Of a stretch of DNA of 64,000 nt, positions 10,476 to 43,203 are shown piece after piece (position 1 is the stretch's first letter; each line of letters opens with the position of its first letter). The translations under genes and the position numbers were made by a program. This DNA is from an uncultured Gammaproteobacteria bacterium (GTDB lineage Bacteria > Patescibacteriota > Patescibacteriia > Magasanikbacterales > UBA922). The stretch lies in assembly GCA_964522435.1 (NCBI GenBank), contig CAZFUL010000002.1:44631-108630 (forward strand), given 5' to 3'. Below the pieces are notes generated by a model. It was given only the letters and a program-made list of their open reading frames with translations. It ran no database searches and was not told where the DNA came from.

Positions 10476-10549
10476 TGTATCGCCAGGGGGAATCGAACCC
10501 CCGTTATCGGGATGAAAACCCGATGTCCTAACCACTAGACGATGGCGAC
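10476..10549 (-). tRNA. tRNA-Glu (anticodon UUC)
   Basis: Reverse complement GTCGCCATCGTCTAGTGGTTAGGAC...TTCGATTCCCCCTGGCGAT folds as a cloverleaf. Anticodon loop TTTTCAT gives UUC. Resembles canonical bacterial tRNA-Glu. Confidence 0.8.
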
Positions 10550-10565
10550 ATAGATGAATGCAAAT

Positions 10566-10594
10566 AGTATAATGAAGTCAAAAACGTTTGTCAA
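10566..10594 (-). promoter_or_regulatory. sigma70-like promoter for tRNA-Glu, TTGACA-N17-TATACT
   Basis: Read on the minus strand: TTGACA, a 17-nt spacer, then TATACT about 15 nt upstream of the tRNA 5' end. Confidence 0.6.
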
Positions 10595-10610
10595 GAATCA
10601 AGTATAATAA

Positions 10611-10707
10611 TCCCTTTACAGCATACAAGGACGAAAGCAACTCGCATAGGGTGCCAGATGCACCCTATGCTGCGACTGCTTTTTTTGCCTGTATGCTGTA
10701 GCGGGAT
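10611..10707. repeat. 97-nt long-hairpin repeat element, copy A
   Basis: Imperfect long hairpin with inner stem GCATAGGGTGC-CAGAT-GCACCCTATGC. A 95%-identical copy lies at 27406-27503. Confidence 0.7.
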
Positions 10708-10734
10708 ATCATATAGCAGTATGATTAAGCCCCC

Positions 10735-10763
10735 TTGACACTCGTTCCTTTATCCGATATACT
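10735..10763 (+). promoter_or_regulatory. sigma70-like promoter for rplJ-rplL, TTGACA-N17-TATACT
   Basis: Exact consensus hexamers. About a 150-nt leader precedes rplJ. Confidence 0.6.
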
Positions 10764-10912
10764 CTTTCCATAACTTACCATAGACAGTAGCTTCTCGAGG
10801 ATATCGGGATTAAATACGCTACCGAGGTATACTAAGGAAACATTCTATATGTTTCTTTACTAAAGGTCGTATACCTTCCTTCGTCTGTGGTTATTAAGCC
10901 ACATTTTTTTAT

Positions 10913-11431
10913 ATGGCAAAAACAAGAGTACAAAAAGAACAATCAGTAGGCGCATTGGTAACAGGGTTGCAATCTGCAACATCCGTTGTCTTTGCAAACT
11001 ACCAAGGACTTTCTGTTGCTGATATGGAAACCTTGCGTGCACAATGTCGAGAACAAGGCATTACCTGTATTGCAAGTAAAAAAACCTTAGTAAAAACTGC
11101 GTTGAAAAGCGCTGGTTTAGAGGTAAATACCAAATCATTCAACGGAGGTATTGCCACGTTCTTTGGAGCTGACGAAGTAAGTGCACCAAAAATTGTTGCA
11201 ACATTTGCAAAAGATCATGAAAAAGTCACGATCTTTGGAGGGGTATTAGAAGGATCATATATCGATAGTGCGCAAGTAAAGGCATTAGCGCTTCTTCCTT
11301 CAAAAGAACAATTGTTGTCTCAATTGGTTGGAACACTCAACGCGCCAGTATCTGGATTTGTCCGTGTATTGTCTGGAAACCTTCGTGGTTTGGTGACAGT
11401 ATTACAGGCAGTAAAAGAACAAAAAGCATAA
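10913..11431 (+). CDS. rplJ: 50S ribosomal protein L10
   Basis: 172 aa with typical L10 sequence. Immediately upstream of L7/L12. Confidence 0.85.
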   Translation: MAKTRVQKEQSVGALVTGLQSATSVVFANYQGLSVADMETLRAQCREQGITCIASKKTLVKTALKSAGLEVNTKSFNGGIATFFGADEVSAPKIVATFAKDHEKVTIFGGVLEGSYIDSAQVKALALLPSKEQLLSQLVGTLNAPVSGFVRVLSGNLRGLVTVLQAVKEQKA

Positions 11432-15825: not shown

Positions 15826-16065
15826 AGGTGCGAATCTACGCCTGCCTGTGTTGCGTCGCTGAAGCTATGCGAAAGCGCAGTAGTTATGTGTAAATAGGAG
15901 GCTGTTAAAGATATTCCAAATAAAGATATATGTTCTTTTATAACTAAAAGAACCAAAAGTTTTGGGGGTGATCGATGTTGCGATTGCTCCCAATCAGTAG
16001 ATACTTCGTCAAAGGCAACGCTCTCACCCCCAAGCCCCTATTCTTTTCTAGTGCGGTTATGAGTA

Positions 16066-16776
16066 CTATTGTAAGGGGACTTCTATCATCAACACAAAGG
16101 CCTCTTTATCAACGCTAAACACAATCTCAGTTGCATCGGTAATACCCGCTGCATCACCTTGAGACAAGGTGGTGTTGTCTAATGTAATACTTCCAGAAAT
16201 AACAAACAGATACACACCATGCTCTTTATTTTTTAGCCCATAGACTACCTGCTCTTGAACAGAAAATTCTCCCCAAGACAAATACGCATCTTGGTGAATA
16301 ATCGCAGAGCCTGCAATGTCGCCAGGGGAGACAAAACAGTCAAAGCGGTTGTATCTTTTTTGGGGATCAAATGTTTTTTGATCATAAAACGGAGGAATAT
16401 TTTGTTCTTTTGTTTCAATCCAAATTTGTAACAAATGCGTTTCTTCCAAAGCAGAGCTGTTTTTTTCTGAATGAAGTACCCCACTGCCTGCAGACATGGT
16501 TTGAATGTCGTTTTTAGAAATAGTGCCTGCATTGCCCATGGTATCTTTATGAGAAATACTCCCAGAGAGGGGAATGGTAATAATTTCCATGTTGTCGTGG
16601 TGGTGGGTATCAAATCCACTATCGGGTGCAATGATATCTTCATTGAGTACCCGCAGTGTGCCAAATCCCATGCGCTCTCTATTAAAATAATTTGCAAAAC
16701 TAAAAGAGTATTTGGTGTTTAACCAATCCATGTTCGCTTTTCCTCTTTCATTCTCTTTGTGAAATACGATGTTCAT
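16066..16776 (-). CDS. Pirin-family cupin protein (YhhW/quercetinase-like)
   Basis: Metal-binding motif TLRVLNEDIIAPDSGFDTHHHDNMEIITIPLSG. Bicupin length of 236 aa. Confidence 0.75.
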   Translation of the reverse strand: MNIVFHKENERGKANMDWLNTKYSFSFANYFNRERMGFGTLRVLNEDIIAPDSGFDTHHHDNMEIITIPLSGSISHKDTMGNAGTISKNDIQTMSAGSGVLHSEKNSSALEETHLLQIWIETKEQNIPPFYDQKTFDPQKRYNRFDCFVSPGDIAGSAIIHQDAYLSWGEFSVQEQVVYGLKNKEHGVYLFVISGSITLDNTTLSQGDAAGITDATEIVFSVDKEAFVLMIEVPLQ

Positions 16777-16787
16777 ATATAAAAAAG

Positions 16788-17201
16788 TTAGATCTGTACG
16801 TCTGGATACGTTTCTTTGTATTGCTCATTTGTGGCGCCAAAGTAGGTAACGCTGCGTAAGACAAAGTCCACTTCGTAAGAAACGACACCCGCATGCCAAA
16901 TAGCGGTTAAAAACTCCGGAAAGGTACTTTTTCCTGCTTGATCTGTGGTAATTGCCGTCATAAGCGCTTCTTTATTAAACGCGGCAATATCCGCCATGCC
17001 TTGTACTAACGGCGTGCCTTGCTGTACCACATTGCCGTAGGGAGTATGATAGATAGATTGTAACGATGGTAAGTACCAATAATTTTTCGTAATGCCGGCT
17101 TGGCGTAGGGCTTCTGCCAAATACGGAAAGCCACCTACGTTGGGGCGAATGCTCATGGCCTGTTGTTGGGCGGCTATCAGATGGTCTATTGCTTGGGACA
17201 T
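16788..17201 (-). CDS. Hypothetical protein, DUF1398-like
   Basis: 137 aa. C-terminal FPEFLTAIWHAGVVSYEVDFVLRSVTYFG pattern. Weak family recall only. Confidence 0.35.
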   Translation of the reverse strand: MSQAIDHLIAAQQQAMSIRPNVGGFPYLAEALRQAGITKNYWYLPSLQSIYHTPYGNVVQQGTPLVQGMADIAAFNKEALMTAITTDQAGKSTFPEFLTAIWHAGVVSYEVDFVLRSVTYFGATNEQYKETYPDVQI

Positions 17202-17259
17202 AGTGTTGTAGGTATGTTTTTTTATTAATTATTTGATGTTTGCCTCGTCCTGAACCCTG

Positions 17260-17730
17260 TTACGCGCATCCTCCACACAGTCTGTTATAGGGGGTTCCAA
17301 AAATTTCAGTTGAGATAATTGAGGCAATATATAGCAAGAGTACAACGCTGAGTATGTATATACATATTCTTGTAAACGTTCGAAGCTTCTTTGACACGGG
17401 TAAAGAAAAATAAATATAGGTAAGTGCCGAAGTCCATGTTATTCCTAATATAAGGGTGCCAATTCTTATTGATGTTGAATAAGGAAGTTGATTAGTATCA
17501 CTATACAGGGGATTCAATAATATAGTATATATGAGCGTATCGGTAATTGGAATAATGAGATTAATAAGGTCAGCTATGAGTAATAATGGGTAAAAATAGA
17601 AACCAATTAAATAACTTCGCGTGATTCCATGATAGTCATAAAAATTTTTTCCATCAATATAGTTAATAAGTAGAAATACTAATAAACCGATGAAAAAAGA
17701 TTTTATTAATTTTGAATAGAAAGCATTCAT
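17260..17730 (-). CDS. Hypothetical small membrane protein, in the AT-rich island
   Basis: 156 aa with 4-5 predicted TM helices. Local GC is about 30%. Confidence 0.4.
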   Translation of the reverse strand: MNAFYSKLIKSFFIGLLVFLLINYIDGKNFYDYHGITRSYLIGFYFYPLLLIADLINLIIPITDTLIYTILLNPLYSDTNQLPYSTSIRIGTLILGITWTSALTYIYFSLPVSKKLRTFTRICIYILSVVLLLYIASIISTEIFGTPYNRLCGGCA

Positions 17731-17732
17731 AG

Positions 17733-18053
17733 CTATTTAGCAGTTGGTGATGTTGTACGCCGTTTTTCTTTGAAAAAATATAGTATTCCCATGAGTGCAA
17801 AGAATAATCCAAATAGTAGTGCAGTAAAAAAATGATCAGCTCCACATTTTGGCTCCATTCCATTAATGTAACAGCCAACGGGGATAGATAAAAATTTCGC
17901 ATACAAAAAACATAATAACGCAACCATAAGTAAACTGGCACCACGGTAATACCATGGTTTTTTTTTCGTAAATCGCTCTATGGGAAAATACACCATAAAA
18001 AATACGATCGTAAACAGGAGGGTAATTGATACGATACTACGAAATTCGTTCAT
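17733..18053 (-). CDS. Hypothetical small membrane protein, in the AT-rich island
   Basis: About 106-130 aa, 2-3 TM. Start ambiguous: M at 18125 or M at 18053. Confidence 0.35.
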   Translation of the reverse strand: MNEFRSIVSITLLFTIVFFMVYFPIERFTKKKPWYYRGASLLMVALLCFLYAKFLSIPVGCYINGMEPKCGADHFFTALLFGLFFALMGILYFFKEKRRTTSPTAK

Positions 18054-18069
18054 AGGAATAGTGTGATAC

Positions 18070-18378
18070 TTATGTTTCTTTTTTAATCCATTTCTTATTA
18101 ATTGCTTCTTCCAAATCAATCCCAAAAAGATGGGCGGTTACTATCGCCATTCCCACGACATCGGCTAATTCTTTTGCAATTTCTTTTTTGGATATTTCTT
18201 CAGGGACATGTTTTTCTGGCCGACTTTTTTTTCTGTGAATTAATACGGCTTGAGTAAGTTCACCAACCTCTTCGTATAATTTTAATAAACCAAAGTCTTG
18301 GTCTATGTCTACATGGTATTTTTTGCCGTAGTTCATGGCATTTTCTACGATTTGTTGTTGGAGTTCTTGAAAATTCAT
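18070..18378 (-). CDS. MazG-like nucleoside triphosphate pyrophosphohydrolase (small all-alpha NTP-PPase)
   Basis: Hallmark motifs EEVGELTQAVL and ELADVVGMAIVTAHLFGIDLEEAI. Confidence 0.65.
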   Translation of the reverse strand: MNFQELQQQIVENAMNYGKKYHVDIDQDFGLLKLYEEVGELTQAVLIHRKKSRPEKHVPEEISKKEIAKELADVVGMAIVTAHLFGIDLEEAINKKWIKKET

Positions 18379-18537
18379 AACACAATACTGGTTATATAAA
18401 AGCAATTTCGCTATTTTTGTTTATGCGTAGTGTTGGCATATCCCTCCTTAGGTATGCAAGTTACATTTTCGTTAGCATTGGGGCTCCACAGCCCTTCGGG
18501 ACTATGGAGCCGGCTGATTTATTGCTCAACCTTTACT

Positions 18538-19227
18538 CTATCGGGTACTAGCCAACCGATTAGCATCAATATCAATTTTATCAAAAGTGTTAAAAATTTC
18601 TAAAAATAGATTTTCCCAATTTTCATAATGTTGAATATTTTTTTGATGATCGTCTATAATACTAATTATGGGGAGTATCTCACATTTTCCATTTATATTA
18701 ATTCCACTACCGCCTGTACCCCTATAAGCACCTAAATAAAAATTTCCAGTAAAAAATAGTAAAGATGCCGCTTGTATTGAATCAGAATCTTCTCTAGGAT
18801 ACCCAAAACTGGTATGGGCAAATACTTTATGACGAAATTGTATGAATGCCTCTATTTCTTTTTTTCTATTTTCAACATTTATTTTATTAAAAACAATTTT
18901 TATTCCTAGATGAGTTAATGTTTTTATTATTTTTTCATAGCTTCGTTCAAGAATTCTTTCAAGATTATATATAGTATTTAAATAAGAAGTGTAATTAGAT
19001 AAGAATCTTAATTTTCTTTTTTTATATTTTTTTGTATGAGTTTCATCGGAATTTTTGTATTTTTGATAATCTTTTAACTCTCTTTTATATATATCATTGA
19101 GAATACTAATTCCTGTTTGTATAGCATCTATTTCATTATGGAATCCAAAAAATGGTGGTACCTCGATATAGCTGATTTTTTTTGAGTATACGTTGTAAAA
19201 TTTCTTAAACATAAAATGCATCTGCAA
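18538..19227 (-). CDS. Hypothetical protein with a possible HEPN Rx4-6H motif (FRHKVFAH), in the AT-rich island
   Basis: 229 aa, Lys/Asn-rich, encoded by DNA of about 28% GC. Motif RHKVFAH. No other recognisable domain. Confidence 0.4.
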   Translation of the reverse strand: MQMHFMFKKFYNVYSKKISYIEVPPFFGFHNEIDAIQTGISILNDIYKRELKDYQKYKNSDETHTKKYKKRKLRFLSNYTSYLNTIYNLERILERSYEKIIKTLTHLGIKIVFNKINVENRKKEIEAFIQFRHKVFAHTSFGYPREDSDSIQAASLLFFTGNFYLGAYRGTGGSGININGKCEILPIISIIDDHQKNIQHYENWENLFLEIFNTFDKIDIDANRLASTR

Positions 19228-19278
19228 TTTATTCTATATATGTTGTTGGTTTACTTAGAGTGCATTCTTCATTTTTTT

Positions 19279-26401: not shown

Positions 26402-26436
26402 ATCCCTTTACGCGCTTGCGTTGAAGGGATTTTTTA
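26402..26436 (+). terminator. Rho-independent terminator of the suf/ferredoxin operon
   Basis: ATCCCTTTACGCGCTTGCGTTGAAGGGAT followed by TTTTTT. Confidence 0.7.
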
Positions 26437-26516: not shown

Positions 26517-27257
26517 TTAGTTGGCGGCGTCAACCCCAGGGTCATCAGCCTCAGCCGCTCGATAATCGGGTGGTGGGTGGCAGACGACGTCCCCTTCTTG
26601 CAAGGGGTAGGGGCCGCCCTCTGCTGCCCCTTCAAACAGGGGCTGATTGAGGCTGTTGTTCCGCAACATCGCGGTGTAGTTGAGGCCGTACACCGCCGCA
26701 TAGCGGCCGAGGGTATCGGGGTCCTCTTCCTTGACGATCCCGTAGAGAAGAGATCCACAGCGCCTTGCGTCTTTGCGCTCGTTGTTGCTGGGTTGCGGCT
26801 TCTCTTCCTCTGGTTCAACGAGCGCTCCGGTCTTTTCATCATAATCTTTGGGGACAAAGTGTCCCAAGACGTCACCCGCTGGGTCGGCGAGCCCGGCGTT
26901 CAGACGCAGGAGCGTGTGTTCGTCTGAATTGTGGTAGATAATAAAACCGGTTGCCACGAAGAGCAAGGATGCTCCGACCTGCCACTTCCAGGGGAGCCGA
27001 GGGAATGTGCCGAGGTACACGATTGCTGCATGTACCGTCACCCCCAGAAAGATGATCCCGCTGAGCATTGGGAAGAAATTCTGGGCGCCAAACACCGCCG
27101 ACCAGGCAGTGCAGAAGATGAGCGTCATCGTTCCCCTGAGGAAGTTCTTCTGGGCTTTGGTAAACGGAGCTGTTTTCTTCAGGGGAGGAGGTTCTTCTTC
27201 GGGAAACTCCTGAGGGGGAGGTTCAGTGGAATCTGCTGGAGTGTATTTTTCTGTCAT
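26517..27257 (-). CDS. Compositionally foreign membrane protein: Pro/Glu-rich N-terminus, three TM helices, C-terminal soluble domain
   Basis: Coding GC about 58-60% against a background of about 40%. Codon bias CTC/CCC/GGG/AGG. Own promoter and a GAAGGAG ribosome-binding site. No family recognised. Confidence 0.55.
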   Translation of the reverse strand: MTEKYTPADSTEPPPQEFPEEEPPPLKKTAPFTKAQKNFLRGTMTLIFCTAWSAVFGAQNFFPMLSGIIFLGVTVHAAIVYLGTFPRLPWKWQVGASLLFVATGFIIYHNSDEHTLLRLNAGLADPAGDVLGHFVPKDYDEKTGALVEPEEEKPQPSNNERKDARRCGSLLYGIVKEEDPDTLGRYAAVYGLNYTAMLRNNSLNQPLFEGAAEGGPYPLQEGDVVCHPPPDYRAAEADDPGVDAAN

Positions 27258-27354: not shown

Positions 27355-27383
27355 ACCCTAGCGCAGATTGGGGTTTTTGTCAA
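27355..27383 (-). promoter_or_regulatory. sigma70-like promoter for the foreign ORF at 26517-27257, TTGACA-N17-TAGGGT
   Basis: Read on the minus strand. A 5'UTR palindrome TCGGCGC-TGAGGGG-GCGCCGA at 27270-27291 lies between the promoter and the ribosome-binding site. Confidence 0.45.
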
Positions 27384-27405
27384 GCTAGGGGGGATATCCT
27401 AACGA

Positions 27406-27503
27406 TCCCTTTTCAGCATACAAGCACGAAAGCAACTCGCGTAGGGTGCCAGATGCACCCTACGCTGCGACTGCTTTCTTTGCCTGTATGCTGTAGCGGG
27501 ATA
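27406..27503. repeat. 97-nt long-hairpin repeat element, copy B
   Basis: 95% identical to 10611-10707. The inner stem GCGTAGGGTGC-CAGAT-GCACCCTACGC keeps its pairing through compensatory changes. Confidence 0.7.
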
Positions 27504-27540: not shown

Positions 27541-27568
27541 AAAAAGCCCCTATACTATAGGAGCTTTT
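27541..27568 (-). terminator. Rho-independent terminator of clpB
   Basis: AAAAAGCCCCTATACTATAGGAGCTTTT, read on the minus strand. Confidence 0.6.
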
Positions 27569-27585
27569 AATATATATATTGATGC

Positions 27586-30228
27586 CTATTTTTTCTTAAC
27601 CGTAATACTATCCTCTTTAATACTTACTAACACCGTATCATTTTCTTGAATAGTCCCTTCAATAATTTGCAACGCAAGAGGATCGAGGAGTTCTCGTTGA
27701 ATAATGCGCTTCAGTGGACGGGCGCCAAGATGTGGATCAAAGCCTTTTTCTCCCAACCAATCTTTGGCTTTTTTATCAACCGTTAGGGTAATTTTCTTTT
27801 CTTGTAATCGCGCTATTACTGCTGCTATTTGCAAATCAACAATATGGCGAATTTGTTTTTTATCAAGCGGGTGAAACATGATAATGTCATCAATACGATT
27901 CAAAAACTCTGGTTTAAAATGCTCGCGTAAGGTATCCATGAGTTTTTTCTTAATAGTTTCCTCATGATGTTTCATGCCACCTTGGTTATTTTCGCCAAAG
28001 CCAAGTTCACCACTTTTGCCCATGCGCATAATCATCTCAGAGCCCACATTACTCGTCATGATAATAACCGTATTTTTAAAGTTTACTTTTCTTCCTTTGG
28101 CATCAGTTAATTGTCCATCTTCTAAAATTTGCAACATCACATTAAATACTTCTGGATGTGCTTTTTCTATTTCATCAAACAATACCACCGAGTAGGGGCG
28201 ACGACGAATTTTTTCTGTGAGTTGTCCACCTTCTTCATAACCAACATAGCCTGGGGCTGCACCAAACATTTTACTTACCGAATGTTTTTCCATGTATTCA
28301 CTCATGTCCACCCGAACAATGGCGTTTTCATCATTAAATAAAAACGTGGCAAGGGTTTTGGCGAGTTCAGTTTTTCCTACGCCTGTTGGACCCATAAAGA
28401 TAAATGAGCCAATAGGACGTTTTTCTTCAGAAATACCAGCACGAGAACGACGAATCGCATGCGATACGGCAGAAATGGCTTCTTCTTGACCAACCACTCG
28501 GGAAGATAATTCTTCTTCCATGCGAGCAAGTTTTTTGGTTTCACTCTCGAGCATTTTGGATACAGGAATTCCTGTCCAGCGAGAAACAACATTCGCAATA
28601 TCTTCTTCGGTGACTTCTTCTTTCAAAATAGCTCTGCCTTTTTGTACGGCAGTTAATTTTTTTTCTAATTGGGTGATTTCTTTTTCTTTTGCAGGAATTT
28701 GTGCGTAACGAATTTCTGCAACTTTTTGTAAATCACCACGGCGTTCGGTAATTTCTGCTTCTTGTTTTAAGGTATCAATATCTTTTTTTGCGGTACGAAT
28801 ATTGGTAATAATATCTTTTTCATTTTTCCAATGGACTTCTAATTCATTACTTTTTTCTCTGGTGTTTTCTAATTCTTGTTGCAATTTTTGCAAGCGAGAC
28901 TTTGAATCCGCATCATGTTCTTTTTTTAGCGCTTCAATTTCAATTTCTAATTTCATCATGTGGCGTTTCATTCTATCCAAATCATCAGGGAGAGAATCAA
29001 TTTCCATACGCAGGGCCGCGGTTGCTTCATCAACCAAATCAATCGCTTTATCTGGTAAAAAGCGATCAGAAATATAGCGACCAGATAATTCTACTGCCGC
29101 GACAATTGCATTGTCCGTAATGCGTACCCCATGATGCACTTCATATTTTTCTTTAATCCCACGTAAAATGGCAATAGCATCAGATTGCTCTGGTTCTTCT
29201 ACTAATACGGGTTGAAACCGTCGTTCAAACGCCGCATCTTTTTCTATATATTTTTGATATTCTTTCAGCGTCGTTGCGCCCACGGTATGAATTTCTCCAC
29301 GTGCTAAGGCGGGTTTTAACATGTTGCTTGCGTCAATCGCCCCATCACTTGATCCTGCCCCAACAATCGTGTGGAGTTCATCTAAGAATAAGATAATTTT
29401 TCCTTTGGATTCACGGGCTTCTTTGAGGACTGCTTTAAATCGTTCTTCAAATTCACCACGGAATTTTGTTCCGGCAACAAGGGCGCCAATATCTAAACCA
29501 ATCACTTCTTTTTCTTTTAAGGATTCTGGGACATCACCTTTCACAATACGCTGCGCGAGTCCTTCAACAATCGCCGTTTTTCCGACGCCTGGTTCTCCAA
29601 TAAGCACCGGATTATTTTTTGTTCGTCGTGATAACACTTGCATCACCCGGCGGATTTCATCATCACGCCCAATGACTGGATCTAATTGTTCATTACGCGC
29701 GCGCTCAGTAAAATTAATGCCGTATTTTTCTAGTGCTTGATACTTACTTTCTGGCGTTTGTGAATCCACGCGTTGGGAACCACGTACTTGCGCTAATACT
29801 TTTAAGATATCATCGTATTGCACACCTTCGCGTTGTAATGCGTCGCTAATAGGATTTTTTTGTTTTGCATAGGCAAGTAACAAATGTTCCACGCTAATAT
29901 ATTCATCACCCATGCGTTTTGATTCTTCTTGGGCTTGTTGCAACACAAAAAGCATGGCTTGGCCCATAAGCACCTGCCCAAGCCCGCCAGAGATATGACC
30001 AAACTGTTTGGGTAATACATCGATCATTGCCTGCACATCACGTTTAATAGCAATAAGATTGACATCTAATTTTTGTAGTACCGAAATCACCACCCCATCT
30101 TCTTGCTCTAATAGCGCCATAAAGAGGTGAGGAGGCTCTACATGGGGTTGATTATTTTCATGCGCAATATGACTGGCCCGTTGTAACGCTTCTTGAGATT
30201 TATTGGTAAAATTATTTGGGTTAAGCAT
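27586..30228 (-). CDS. clpB: ATP-dependent chaperone ClpB
   Basis: Two AAA+ modules: GEPGVGKT and GPTGVGKT. Middle coiled-coil domain. 880 aa. Confidence 0.9.
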
Positions 30229-35343: not shown

Positions 35344-35898
35344 ATGTCAATTAGCTTTGGATTGCGTCGTTTTCTGCAGCAGCTCCGCTACGATGAGCTC
35401 CGGCTGTTCCAACAGTTCACACAGATGGCTGGTACGGGAGATCGCCTGTGTCTGAAAGATATTCCACCGGAGAAGGGAGAAGCGGTGAGCGCCTTCTTTG
35501 CACTGTTGGTGGAACAGGATATCCTCACCCTCGTGAGCGAACAAGGGGCACATGGGAATATCTGGCGTCTCAACCGGCGTTTGTATGACCAGCTGCTTCC
35601 TGCCAGCTACCAGACCCCCAAGGGGATTGTGCTGCTGGTGGCACAGGAATTCCAGCAGCCTGTGGCACATATTTTGGGTCATGAACACCGCAAACCTGCT
35701 GTGTTTGCCACGAAAGTGGTTGCCTGGCTCATGTACAACAATGGCCGGGGCACGACCTCCCAAGCTGATATCGGTAAGGAGCTGAACCGGGCCCAGTCAA
35801 CCGTATGCACCGATATCATCTTCATTGGGCAGGCAATGCTCGAAGATCCGGCGTTCAACGCTCGGGTGATGCGGTTATACGCCCGCATCTACGGCTGA
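35344..35898 (+). CDS. Compositionally foreign putative DNA-binding protein: N-terminal winged-helix-like segment and C-terminal HTH
   Basis: Coding GC about 55% with CTG/GGC/CGC codon bias. C-terminal HTH-like segment TTSQADIGKELNRAQSTVCTDI. Strong ribosome-binding site. Confidence 0.55.
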   Translation: MSISFGLRRFLQQLRYDELRLFQQFTQMAGTGDRLCLKDIPPEKGEAVSAFFALLVEQDILTLVSEQGAHGNIWRLNRRLYDQLLPASYQTPKGIVLLVAQEFQQPVAHILGHEHRKPAVFATKVVAWLMYNNGRGTTSQADIGKELNRAQSTVCTDIIFIGQAMLEDPAFNARVMRLYARIYG

Positions 35899-36035
35899 TT
35901 TTCCCACCTGAAACGAGAGAATCCCACCTTTCAGGGCGGCAATTCTCGTTTCCCAAGACGATGCCACCCAATCTCTGTATATACTCGTATGTATGTAGAG
36001 ATTGGAGAACAACGGCATCGTTTTGTGAAAAAATA

Positions 36036-36068
36036 AAACCCCGACACATGTGTCAGGGTTTTTTAATC
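36036..36068. terminator. Bidirectional rho-independent terminator
   Basis: AAAATAAAA-CCCCGACACATGTGTCAGGG-TTTTTT. Confidence 0.6.
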
Positions 36069-36084
36069 TCTCATGGTTGTTTTC

Positions 36085-36642: not shown

Positions 36643-36752
36643 ATATTTTTGCTTAAATGTATGCTGTAGTATGCCGCTTTTTATGGTGGTTTGTCAACTG
36701 AGTCTTGAAACATATATTCTGCAAAAAAAATATGTGCTATACTGATATACGT

Positions 36753-37436: not shown

Positions 37437-38345
37437 ATGATTTCTTTTCTTCGTATTATCCGATTTGCGTTGCAGGACATGGTGCGTAACCTGAGCTTGT
37501 CCTTCATGACATTGCTGATTCTTATTCTCATGTTATTGTCTATCAATACCCTTATTATTGTGCGGGTATTTACTGACCAGACTATTGAAACCGTGAAACA
37601 GCAAATAGATGTGAGTGTGTATTTTCATCATGAAGCAAAAGATGACAGTATAGAAGAAATGCGCCAATATATTACTGCCTTTCCAGAAGTTACCGATGTA
37701 AGCTATTACAATAAAGAACAAGTGTTAGAACAATTTCGTGAAACACATAAAGATAATCCAGATATTATTGCCTCCTTGTCTGAATTAGCAGATAATCCGC
37801 TTGGCGCCACCATGATTATTAAAACGCGTGATCCAGCAGATTACAAAAAGGTTATTGATGCGTTAAATGTTCCGGAGTATGACGGTATTATTGAAGCAAA
37901 AACCTTTGCAGACACAGAGCAAGCCATTAGCCGAGTGACGCTCATTACCAAACAAGTAGAACAAGCGGTATATGCCTTAACGGCCTTGTTTGCCATTATT
38001 GCCTTCTTTGTTATTTTTAATACTGTACGCGTCGCCATTTATACCCAAAGAACAGAGATTAGTATTAAAAAATTGGTCGGCGCAACAGATTGGTTTGTGC
38101 GTGGTCCGTATATTGTAGAATCAGTTTTATTTACCATCCTGAGTGTTGCGATAACAACTGGGATTATGTTTTTTGTCATTCGCTTTTTAGACCCCTATGT
38201 GAGTGTATTATTGAATAAAGAGGCATTCTTGACAAATTACGTTGAGTCTCATATACTGGTGCTCATAGCGACTCAATGTATCGTGGTTTTCTTCTTAACG
38301 ATTGCCACCAGTGGGTTAGCAATGAGGAAGTACCTTAGAACGTAG
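37437..38345 (+). CDS. ftsX: Cell division permease FtsX
   Basis: 302 aa. N-terminal TM, periplasmic loop, three C-terminal TM helices. Directly follows ftsE. Confidence 0.75.
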   Translation: MISFLRIIRFALQDMVRNLSLSFMTLLILILMLLSINTLIIVRVFTDQTIETVKQQIDVSVYFHHEAKDDSIEEMRQYITAFPEVTDVSYYNKEQVLEQFRETHKDNPDIIASLSELADNPLGATMIIKTRDPADYKKVIDALNVPEYDGIIEAKTFADTEQAISRVTLITKQVEQAVYALTALFAIIAFFVIFNTVRVAIYTQRTEISIKKLVGATDWFVRGPYIVESVLFTILSVAITTGIMFFVIRFLDPYVSVLLNKEAFLTNYVESHILVLIATQCIVVFFLTIATSGLAMRKYLRT

Positions 38346-38398: not shown

Positions 38399-38469
38399 TC
38401 GGGGATCGTCTAACGGTAGGACTCTAGGTTTTGGTCCTAGTTATCGGGGTTCGAATCCCTGTCCCCGAG
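38399..38469 (+). tRNA. tRNA-Gln (anticodon UUG)
   Basis: TCGGGGATCGTCTAACGGTAGGACTCTAGGTTTTGGTCCTAG...GGGGTTCGAATCCCTGTCCCCGAG. Anticodon loop TTTTGGT. Confidence 0.7.
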
Positions 38470-38576
38470 CAAAATATAAATACACCCATATGGGTGTATT
38501 TATATTTATGATAGTGAAAGGGATTCGAAGGGCGCGAGAGCCCCGACTAAATGTCGGGGCGGTGCGCAGCGCCCCG

Positions 38577-42713: not shown

Positions 42714-43133
42714 CTAGCGGCGGCGCGTGAGTCCGAATTTGAAGAACTCCCACAGAATCGCGCCAAACACGTCATTGTGGATCTGGTGGATCTGCCGGCA
42801 TTCGCCAATCAGTCGCGGATGCGTGATGCTCTCGAAGCCCCGGGGCATCAAGAAGTCATCATCGGCGATGCCCGCCACGATGGCCGCGTCGAAGATGTCG
42901 GTGAACGCCGCTTCTTCCTGGTCGGAAGAAAGCCCCTGAAACAGCCGCTCCCAGGCCGTGAGCGCCTTGGCGCTGCTCCGTGAAAACACCCACGTCCAGA
43001 AGGTTGGTCTCGGCAGCGCGACCCAGCCCGCATCTGTCTTTGCTTGAGTGCTGATTGGAGGTCGCTGTTTCGGGAAGGTGCTGAAGTATTTCACCCTGTC
43101 CCCGTGGTTGATACCTGTGATCAGGAAGATCAT
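42714..43133 (-). CDS. Compositionally foreign small soluble protein (140 aa), unknown function
   Basis: Coding GC about 58%, CTG/GCC/CGC bias. Start MIFLITGINHGDR, preceded by CCAAGGAG. The upstream GTG-extended ORF was trimmed. No family recognised. Confidence 0.5.
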   Translation of the reverse strand: MIFLITGINHGDRVKYFSTFPKQRPPISTQAKTDAGWVALPRPTFWTWVFSRSSAKALTAWERLFQGLSSDQEEAAFTDIFDAAIVAGIADDDFLMPRGFESITHPRLIGECRQIHQIHNDVFGAILWEFFKFGLTRRR

Positions 43134-43174
43134 GCGTTGCTCCTTGGTGGATATGGCAGTATTGCCATGACCGC

Positions 43175-43203
43175 AGTACACAAAAAAAACGAGCTTTTGT
43201 CAA
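43175..43203 (-). promoter_or_regulatory. sigma70-like promoter for the foreign ORF at 43133-42714, TTGACA-N17-TGTACT
   Basis: Read on the minus strand. 5'UTR palindrome ATGGCA-GTAT-TGCCAT at 43153-43168. Immediately upstream is an array of CAATTAACA / TGTTAATTG repeats at 43205-43290. Confidence 0.4.

Follow-up and report, generated by a model that had tools for sequence, protein, structure and literature searches.

The DNA analysed here, referred to as the window, is a 64-kb stretch from the genome of a member of the Patescibacteria, a relative of Candidatus Magasanikbacteria. Beyond proteins identical to its own, the best match to its L10 protein is 78% identical and that to its ClpB 85% identical, and the matches that carry names are Magasanikbacteria MAGs. 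A repeat search of the window returned a sole long repeat family, with two copies in the same orientation that share an ungapped conserved block of 104 nt at 93% identity. The palindrome proper runs from ATCCC to GGGAT within this block. Upon alignment it was found to be 98 nt long, with 5 substitutions and no indel between the copies (about 95% identity). The two copies of about 95% identity described in the original prediction are therefore present, with slightly corrected coordinates:

10605 to 10708, no strand assigned: repeat copy A, conserved block of 104 nt, with the palindrome proper at 10610-10707
10644-10670: inner 11-bp stem of copy A with its 5-nt loop
27400 to 27503, no strand assigned: repeat copy B, with the palindrome proper at 27405-27502 and the inner stem at 27439-27465

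Read as its reverse complement, the right end of the element (ATCCCGCTACAGCATACA) agrees with the left end (ATCCCTTTACAGCATACA) in 16 of 18 positions, the terminus sequence being ATCCCKYTACAGCATACA, and the centre is a perfect 11-bp palindrome around a 5-nt loop. We found the central 27-mer at two places only in the window, copies A and B, with zero occurrences expected by chance. The GC content of the two copies is 0.47 and 0.52, versus 0.37 for intergenic DNA. The sole ORF inside the element is a frame of 26-38 codons without an RBS that is unlike between the copies, on which grounds a peptide-coding reading was rejected; the element has no coding capacity.

Copy A lies in the spacer between a tRNA gene and a ribosomal protein gene (site A), with the following neighbours:

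10477 to 10549, minus strand: tRNA-Glu(UUC) gene
10566 to 10594, minus strand: tRNA-Glu promoter, TTGACA-17-TATACT, 11/12 match to consensus, with its -35 box at 10594 to 10589; a neighbour of the repeat, outside it
10735 to 10763, plus strand: rplJ promoter, TTGACA (10735-10740)-17-TATACT, 11/12 match, starting 27 nt past the right end of the palindrome
10760 to 10920, plus strand: probable ribosomal protein L10 leader (RF00557, 40.8 bits, below the gathering threshold of 44; E 3.3e-5)
10913 to 11431, plus strand: rplJ

The spacer between the divergent -35 boxes is 140 nt, and the repeat fills 104 nt of it, upstream of both promoters and with its edge 10 nt from the -35 box of tRNA-Glu. The earlier placement of copy A between the divergent tRNA-Glu and rplJ promoters is borne out by the 11/12 match of each. 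A segment of this L10-leader-like structure ('ccatagacagtagc...taccgagg') is also present in the related loci L003, L010 and L013.

Relatives share the gene order at this site: dnaE, tsaD (minus strand), tRNA-Glu (minus strand), rplJ, rplL and then a minus-strand gene of 729-749 aa. L013 and L014 (GCA_002773135.1) have an empty site, with a distance of 3 nt between the two -35 hexamers (AGTCAAgacTTGACA, L013 9766-9780). In L010 the spacer is 433 nt and holds a GC-rich ORF of 77 aa with its own promoter together with an unrelated 62-nt hairpin, and in L003, the closest relative, it holds another small GC-rich ORF and two other long palindromes. These relatives are different species, with L10 at most 78% identical, too diverged for exact insertion junctions. 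The GC-rich ORFs found here in L010 (2921-3250; 77 aa) and L003 (173-566; about 72-109 aa) are mutually unrelated and have no Pfam match. Each is followed by a long hairpin, and the place looks like an insertion hotspot. In addition, at L013 9635-9721 and L014 8589-8675, between the tRNA-Glu promoter and the intact tRNA-Glu gene, 22 nt from the 5' end of this gene appear a second time, joined by about 65 nt that are unrelated to it; this may be a small insertion with a target duplication or a degenerate second tRNA.

Copy B lies downstream of clpB (site B). On the minus strand the order is clpB, its terminator, copy B, a TTGACA hexamer, an ORF of 246 aa and a bidirectional terminator:

30228 to 27586, minus strand: clpB, with its stop at 27586
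27543 to 27569, minus strand: clpB intrinsic terminator, between the clpB stop and copy B, called from a hairpin match and from reading the sequence
27378 to 27383, minus strand: TTGACA hexamer (CTTGACAAAAAC) that lacks an acceptable -10 box, separated from copy B by 16 nt
26517 to 27257, minus strand: GC-rich (0.57) ORF of 246 aa
26394 to 26438, no strand assigned: bidirectional terminator between a ferredoxin-like gene and the GC-rich ORF, marking the far limit of the inserted region of site B

The hexamer is a possible weak promoter of the GC-rich ORF. Copy B had been placed between the clpB terminator and the promoter of a foreign gene. It does lie between that terminator and the GC-rich ORF, whose putative promoter lacks an acceptable -10 box. 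The 246-aa ORF has no Pfam domain, and no homologue was found in 5.8 billion proteins by a word-indexed search or in 1.84 billion cluster representatives by full phmmer.

In the nearest relative at this site, L016 (ClpB 85% identical), clpB converges on the ferredoxin-like gene across a gap of 146 nt that contains two terminators. The corresponding gap in the window is 1208 nt, and copy B and the GC-rich ORF together fill it. L017 has glnA at this place. In L018 (ClpB 82%) a different palindromic repeat of about 135 nt, with GTCATYCCGRRC termini, lies between the clpB terminator and a CTTGACAAAAAC box. The palindromic family with GTCATYCCGRRC termini occurs at L003 42-164, L017 8449-9093 and L018 5345-5478. 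The L017 occurrence, arranged in tandem units of 36 nt, flanks a GIY-YIG gene. The family was not found in the 64-kb window.

Two further GC-rich ORFs lie in the window, at 35344-35898 (plus strand) and 42714-43181 (minus strand); together with 26517-27257 the three have a GC content of 0.55-0.59, versus 0.40 for the genome. The ORF at 35344-35898 has a weak match to the DnaA C-terminal HTH domain (E 1.8e-4, below the cut-off), and the ORF at 42714-43181 has no Pfam match. That the GC-rich ORFs of the window and its relatives form one mobile gene family was rejected, since they show no mutual similarity. Directly downstream of the ORF at 35344-35898 we observed an unrelated composite hairpin of about 80 nt at 35948-36027 (ACGATGCC...GGCATCGT around CCAATCTCT...AGAGATTGG), followed by a bidirectional terminator at 36024-36073. 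At the other extreme of composition, the stretch 15826-19278 has a low GC content (down to 0.26) and encodes a pirin, a DUF1398 protein and a number of small membrane-like ORFs of unknown identity. Since the otherwise syntenic L013 and L010 lack this stretch, it probably represents another island.

On either strand, each copy adopts a single long and imperfect hairpin, built of three helices:

outer helix: ATCCC plus TACAGCATACA
middle helix: GAAAGCA
inner helix: GCATAGGGTGC, with a 5-nt loop

Across both copies and both strands, folding energies were -53 to -62 kcal/mol as RNA (z -8.0 to -10.5) and -31 to -35.5 kcal/mol as DNA (z -7.8 to -9.5). The fold is essentially equal in strength on the two strands, as RNA and as DNA. 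A long hairpin had been predicted, along with a comparison of its folding energy with that of shuffled controls; this comparison upheld it, with z of about -8 to -10 for either nucleic acid. Wobble pairs are found on both strands, with plus-strand G.U pairs at alignment columns 12-97 and 29-79 and a minus-strand G.U pair, which is A.C on the plus strand, at columns 24-85. No strand is thus marked as the RNA strand, and the equal fold together with wobble pairs on both strands is the behaviour of a DNA palindrome.

We then placed the five differences between the copies on the fold. The differences at 10646 (A in copy A, G in copy B) and 10668 (T and C) are partners in the inner stem, so that an A-T pair becomes G-C, a true compensatory change. 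The difference at 10684 (T and C) changes G.T to G-C. At 10618 (A and T) an outer-stem A-T pair is lost in copy B, and the difference at 10630 (G and C), within an internal loop, changes the register of pairing locally. Among the 37 predicted pairs, compared over two sequences only, there is one double change and one single-sided change that preserves pairing, and one pair outside the consensus pairs is broken between the copies.

To see how often this pattern arises at random, we introduced five random substitutions in simulation (three transitions and two transversions), starting from either copy. One or more doubly compensated Watson-Crick pairs arose in 2.5-2.9% of trials (p ~0.03). On the plus strand the simulated mutant was as stable as the other copy in 5-7% of trials; by the same measure on the minus strand this was the case in 0.08% of trials from A to B versus 22% from B to A. 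The structure is retained between the two sequences somewhat better than with random changes, which is compatible with some functional constraint, suggestively and not compellingly. It has been reported that template switching between the arms of a palindrome can change both sides of a pair in one event without selection (Monttinen and Loytynoja, PMC8794818). The paired A-to-G and T-to-C change noticed in the original prediction is genuine, but its reading as covariation that indicates selection on structure is overstated, because it concerns one base pair in two sequences at p ~0.03, another pair is broken, and template switching could produce it. The case cautions against taking a single compensatory pair within a DNA palindrome as evidence of an RNA gene.

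Both copies adjoin a TTGACA hexamer on the minus strand (10594 to 10589 and 27383 to 27378), as had been noted, but these hexamers lie outside the repeat and at different spacing. The distance from the -35 box to the repeat is 10 nt for copy A and 16 nt for copy B, and the intervening bases are unrelated. A full promoter-like match (11/12) was found only for the hexamer of copy A, with copy B lacking an acceptable -10 box. The nonamer shared by the two sites, CTTGACAAA, has 6 occurrences in the window, of which 4 stand at sites unconnected with the element, one of these being at 38228 just upstream of tRNA-Gln; it is the general (extended) -35 consensus of this genome. We considered whether TTTGTCAAG, which adjoins both copies, is part of the repeat and rejected this, as it is the general -35 consensus and is found 6 times in the window. 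Relatives without the element have promoters for tRNA-Glu and rplJ, that of tRNA-Glu with a TTGACT -35 box, and L018, also without it, has the CTTGACAAAAAC 12-mer downstream of clpB, identical to that of the window. A promoter scan inside the element returned a single hybrid match (9/12), located at the right end of copy A, and none for copy B, so that no outward promoter is conserved in the element by the scan of both copies. The suggestion that the element supplies outward promoters is not supported, given that the boxes lie outside the repeat at variable distance, follow the general consensus and, for tRNA-Glu and in L018 also downstream of clpB, have counterparts in relatives that lack the element.

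Near the tRNA-Gln gene (38399-38470) the window also holds an inverted repeat at 38450-38529 with 40-nt arms and 80% complementarity. Its left arm is the 3' end of the tRNA; the right arm terminates with GGGATTCGAA, a sequence complementary to the T-arm.

We searched for further copies with a covariance model built from the pair. With filters off, no further copy was found in the window, the other matches being ordinary terminator hairpins of at most 16 bits. On 10 related loci the same model gave only weak matches, up to 22 bits, to unrelated long hairpins and terminators. The covariance-model search that had been proposed for finding more members of the family thus returned none in the window or in these loci. 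An exact scan for the 19-nt core gave 0 matches in 185,579 GTDB species genomes and 0 in IMG/VR; 2 matches in JGI metagenomes showed no similarity in their flanks and were put down to chance. A gapped pattern of the outer stem gave 6 genome matches, about the chance expectation; 3 of the 6 represent a single conserved sequence of Clostridia, and all 6 are unrelated to the element. The same pattern gave 0 matches in IMG/VR, and the terminus and outer-stem pattern was not found in the related genomes.

Nothing was found by blastn against phages and plasmids, and no match at gathering level was found in Rfam 15, where the only match at E up to 10 was a plant miRNA precursor (20 bits versus a threshold of 135). 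Two short identities within the window were at chance level by shuffling and were rejected: the 12-mer CTACAGCATACA at 36657-36668 (minus strand), identical to part of the element and considered as a third partial copy, and the 10-mer ATCCCTTTAC at 26402-26411 (plus strand), shared with a terminator. The half-site TAGGGTGC occurs nowhere else in the window. As a target-site duplication only the dinucleotide TA fits both copies; it requires the non-conserved terminal bases and is at chance level, with about 1 match of this kind expected. No transposase, integrase, tyrosine recombinase or Y1 (RAYT/IS200) gene was found among the 36 of 59 window ORFs that were scanned against Pfam, the others being annotated only through synteny with relatives or unannotated.

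Several explanations were weighed for a non-coding hairpin at these two positions. It would be a small structured ncRNA, or a cis-acting RNA hairpin, under structural selection if the compensatory A-U to G-C pair, the change of G.U to G-C and the very low fold z-scores reflected an RNA. Copy A also has a TATAAT just upstream (10603-10608) and a T-run after the middle stem. However, this TATAAT has no -35 box and no equivalent in copy B, where the T-run is interrupted, and no conserved promoter precedes the copies. Rfam gives no match and both strands fold alike. Copy A, being upstream of both neighbouring promoters, appears from its position to be untranscribed spacer, and the single covarying pair (p ~0.03) has a mutational explanation (PMC8794818) and is accompanied by the broken outer-stem pair of copy B. 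We consider an RNA element quite improbable, and the structured-ncRNA option of the original prediction is disfavoured by the missing Rfam match, conserved promoter and strand asymmetry and by the position of copy A. Also unlikely is a structural or protein-binding DNA element close to promoters, in which a dimeric regulator at the 11-5-11 centre, or a cruciform formed under the supercoiling of divergent transcription, would insulate or tune the minus-strand promoter. It would account for the same orientation of both copies to a minus-strand TTGACA 10-16 nt away, for the position of copy A exactly between two strong divergent promoters, for a perfect palindromic centre kept through a double change and for a plus-strand structure kept better than in random mutants (p ~0.03-0.07). 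Against this, the -35 distance differs between the copies (10 vs 16 nt), the box of copy B has no -10 partner and the half-site is absent from the rest of the window. In addition, relatives run the tRNA-Glu promoter without the element, one of them has CTTGACAAAAAC after clpB, and any insertion in a compact intergenic region ends near a promoter. Taking RNA and DNA versions together, a Patescibacteria-specific functional hairpin under purifying selection, whether a small RNA or a cruciform or protein-binding insulator upstream of strong promoters, seems very doubtful; if it were true, the element would be the founding example of a regulatory repeat class in reduced Patescibacteria genomes.

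The surroundings of copy B bring in two other explanations. The hairpin could be a relic of one insertion of foreign DNA, without mobility of its own, having arrived at site B with the GC-rich segment before recombination or gene conversion placed a single copy at site A, or having gone in the opposite direction, and having perhaps served as a cassette recombination site or a terminator. Copy B directly adjoins the GC-rich orphan ORF within a 1.1-kb region that the nearest relative lacks, the GC content of the element exceeds that of the DNA around it, and other GC-rich ORFs of the window and its relatives likewise come with long hairpins. Yet copy A has no adjoining GC-rich ORF, the hairpins at the other GC-rich ORFs are unrelated in sequence and stand 3' of their ORFs, whereas at site B the element is 5' of the putative promoter of the ORF. 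Core sites of the attC type are lacking, and the scanned ORFs include no integrase. We regard such a relic as decidedly unlikely. The element might instead be a terminator or an insulator hairpin, keeping transcription from running on into the downstream promoter. This would suit the position of copy B downstream of clpB, and in both copies a consensus scan picks out the inner stem plus GAGTTGCTTT as resembling a minus-strand terminator. This identity was rejected and is highly improbable: the minus-strand consensus match is weak, clpB has its own canonical terminator 35 nt upstream of copy B (27543-27569), and no gene reads into copy A on either strand. The real terminators of this genome are short GC stems between A and T tracts, unlike a 98-nt rod.

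The reading that we favour, and that we hold to be probable by a modest measure, is that the element is a lineage-specific, non-coding foldback repeat of about 100 bp, MITE-like in a loose sense, that acts at the level of DNA. Of the options that had been offered, a REP/MITE-like mobile repeat fits best. A mobile repeat is preferred because both sites are empty or differently occupied in syntenic relatives and because the element has inverted termini and no coding capacity. Among the relatives compared, the element appears to be specific to the genome of the window. The palindrome of L018 at the position of copy B indicates that such spacers are recurrent landing sites for palindromic repeats in this lineage. 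Both positions thus appear to be recurrent landing sites for unrelated palindromic repeats and GC-rich inserts, with the element itself specific to the window genome.

As a foldback repeat, the element would have spread, or been copied, to at least two intergenic spacers after the split from the nearest sampled relatives. Through its inverted-repeat arms either strand, once single-stranded in replication or transposition, could fold into the same rod-like hairpin. The element would have landed only where a compact genome tolerates it, in a spacer of back-to-back promoters and in a spacer between a terminator and a promoter. Selection on the element's own hairpin, as the substrate of its mover, or template-switch correction between the arms could have kept the symmetry. 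A dedicated cellular function would probably be slight or lacking, with any effect on the neighbouring promoters incidental. An RNA function is not needed to explain the element. The data show the repeat, its fold, its uniqueness, the conserved synteny around its two sites and the empty or otherwise filled state of these sites in relatives; mobility, a mechanism at the level of DNA and the lack of a host function are what we infer.

Small palindromic repeats have scarcely been described in Candidate Phyla Radiation genomes, and we found nothing specific in the literature searched. Our data suggest that even genomes of about 1 Mb gather lineage-specific foldback repeats and GC-rich orphan inserts at recurrent hotspots, here the promoter spacer of tRNA-Glu and rplJ and the gap after the clpB terminator. 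Beyond these hotspots and the caution on covariation, the finding is an ordinary one.

We compared the element with known systems. The GTCATYCCGRRC repeats of L003, L017 and L018 share with it the host lineage, the size class (about 120-135 nt) and, in L018, the position. However, their termini and core are unrelated to those of the element, and the covariance model of the element scores them at just 15-22 bits. REPs are 20-40 nt long with a conserved 5' GTAG and a cognate RAYT gene. Like the element, REP/BIME sequences (RAYT, TnpA-REP) are extragenic palindromes without target duplication that act through single-strand hairpins. In contrast, the element is 98 nt long, has GTAG 3' of the hairpin and is accompanied by no Y1 transposase among the window ORFs scanned (36/59); on these three counts, membership in the REP/RAYT group was rejected. 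An integron attC site was rejected as well, as there are no R''/R' cores (RYYYAAC / GTTRRRY) and no tyrosine recombinase among the scanned ORFs.

The ends of the Neisseria Correia element (CREE) carry functional promoter boxes (PMC10969869). Correia elements resemble the element in size class, in their inverted termini and in their position immediately upstream of genes, the position being the basis of the outward-promoter idea. They differ from it in that its neighbouring -35 boxes are external to the repeat, at a spacing that varies, and that copy B yielded no outward promoter in the scan. A promoter-bearing repeat of the Correia type was rejected, since the scan gave no functional outward -35/-10 pair inside the element.

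The closest likeness is to MITEs and other foldback repeats, which are likewise about 100 bp, non-coding and dispersed between genes, with terminal inverted repeats and a stable stem-loop, and often stand beside promoters. The element is under the 500-bp limit, without coding capacity, and has terminal inverted repeats of the expected length (about 4-30 bp). As to dispersal, two copies were seen in 64 kb, at sites that are empty or differently filled in relatives of other species. MITEs are usually AT-rich. The element differs in this respect, its GC content being above that of intergenic DNA, and also in being palindromic almost throughout and not just at its termini. It shows no demonstrable target-site duplication and no sequence similarity to anything in the collections searched, and no related autonomous IS or transposase with matching termini was found among the 36 of 59 window ORFs scanned, nor the terminus and outer-stem pattern in the related genomes. 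For prokaryotic MITEs we used two reviews (PMC10969869, PMC3184786), with the Coxiella QMITE, the enterobacterial RU-1/ERIC and the pneumococcal RUP as examples, and the general description of size, inverted termini and a stable stem-loop fits the element (PMC10969869). We therefore file it as a MITE-like or foldback repeat and not as a proven MITE. As a repeat it is real and non-random, and it makes up a new and very small family of a well-known kind of bacterial repeat.
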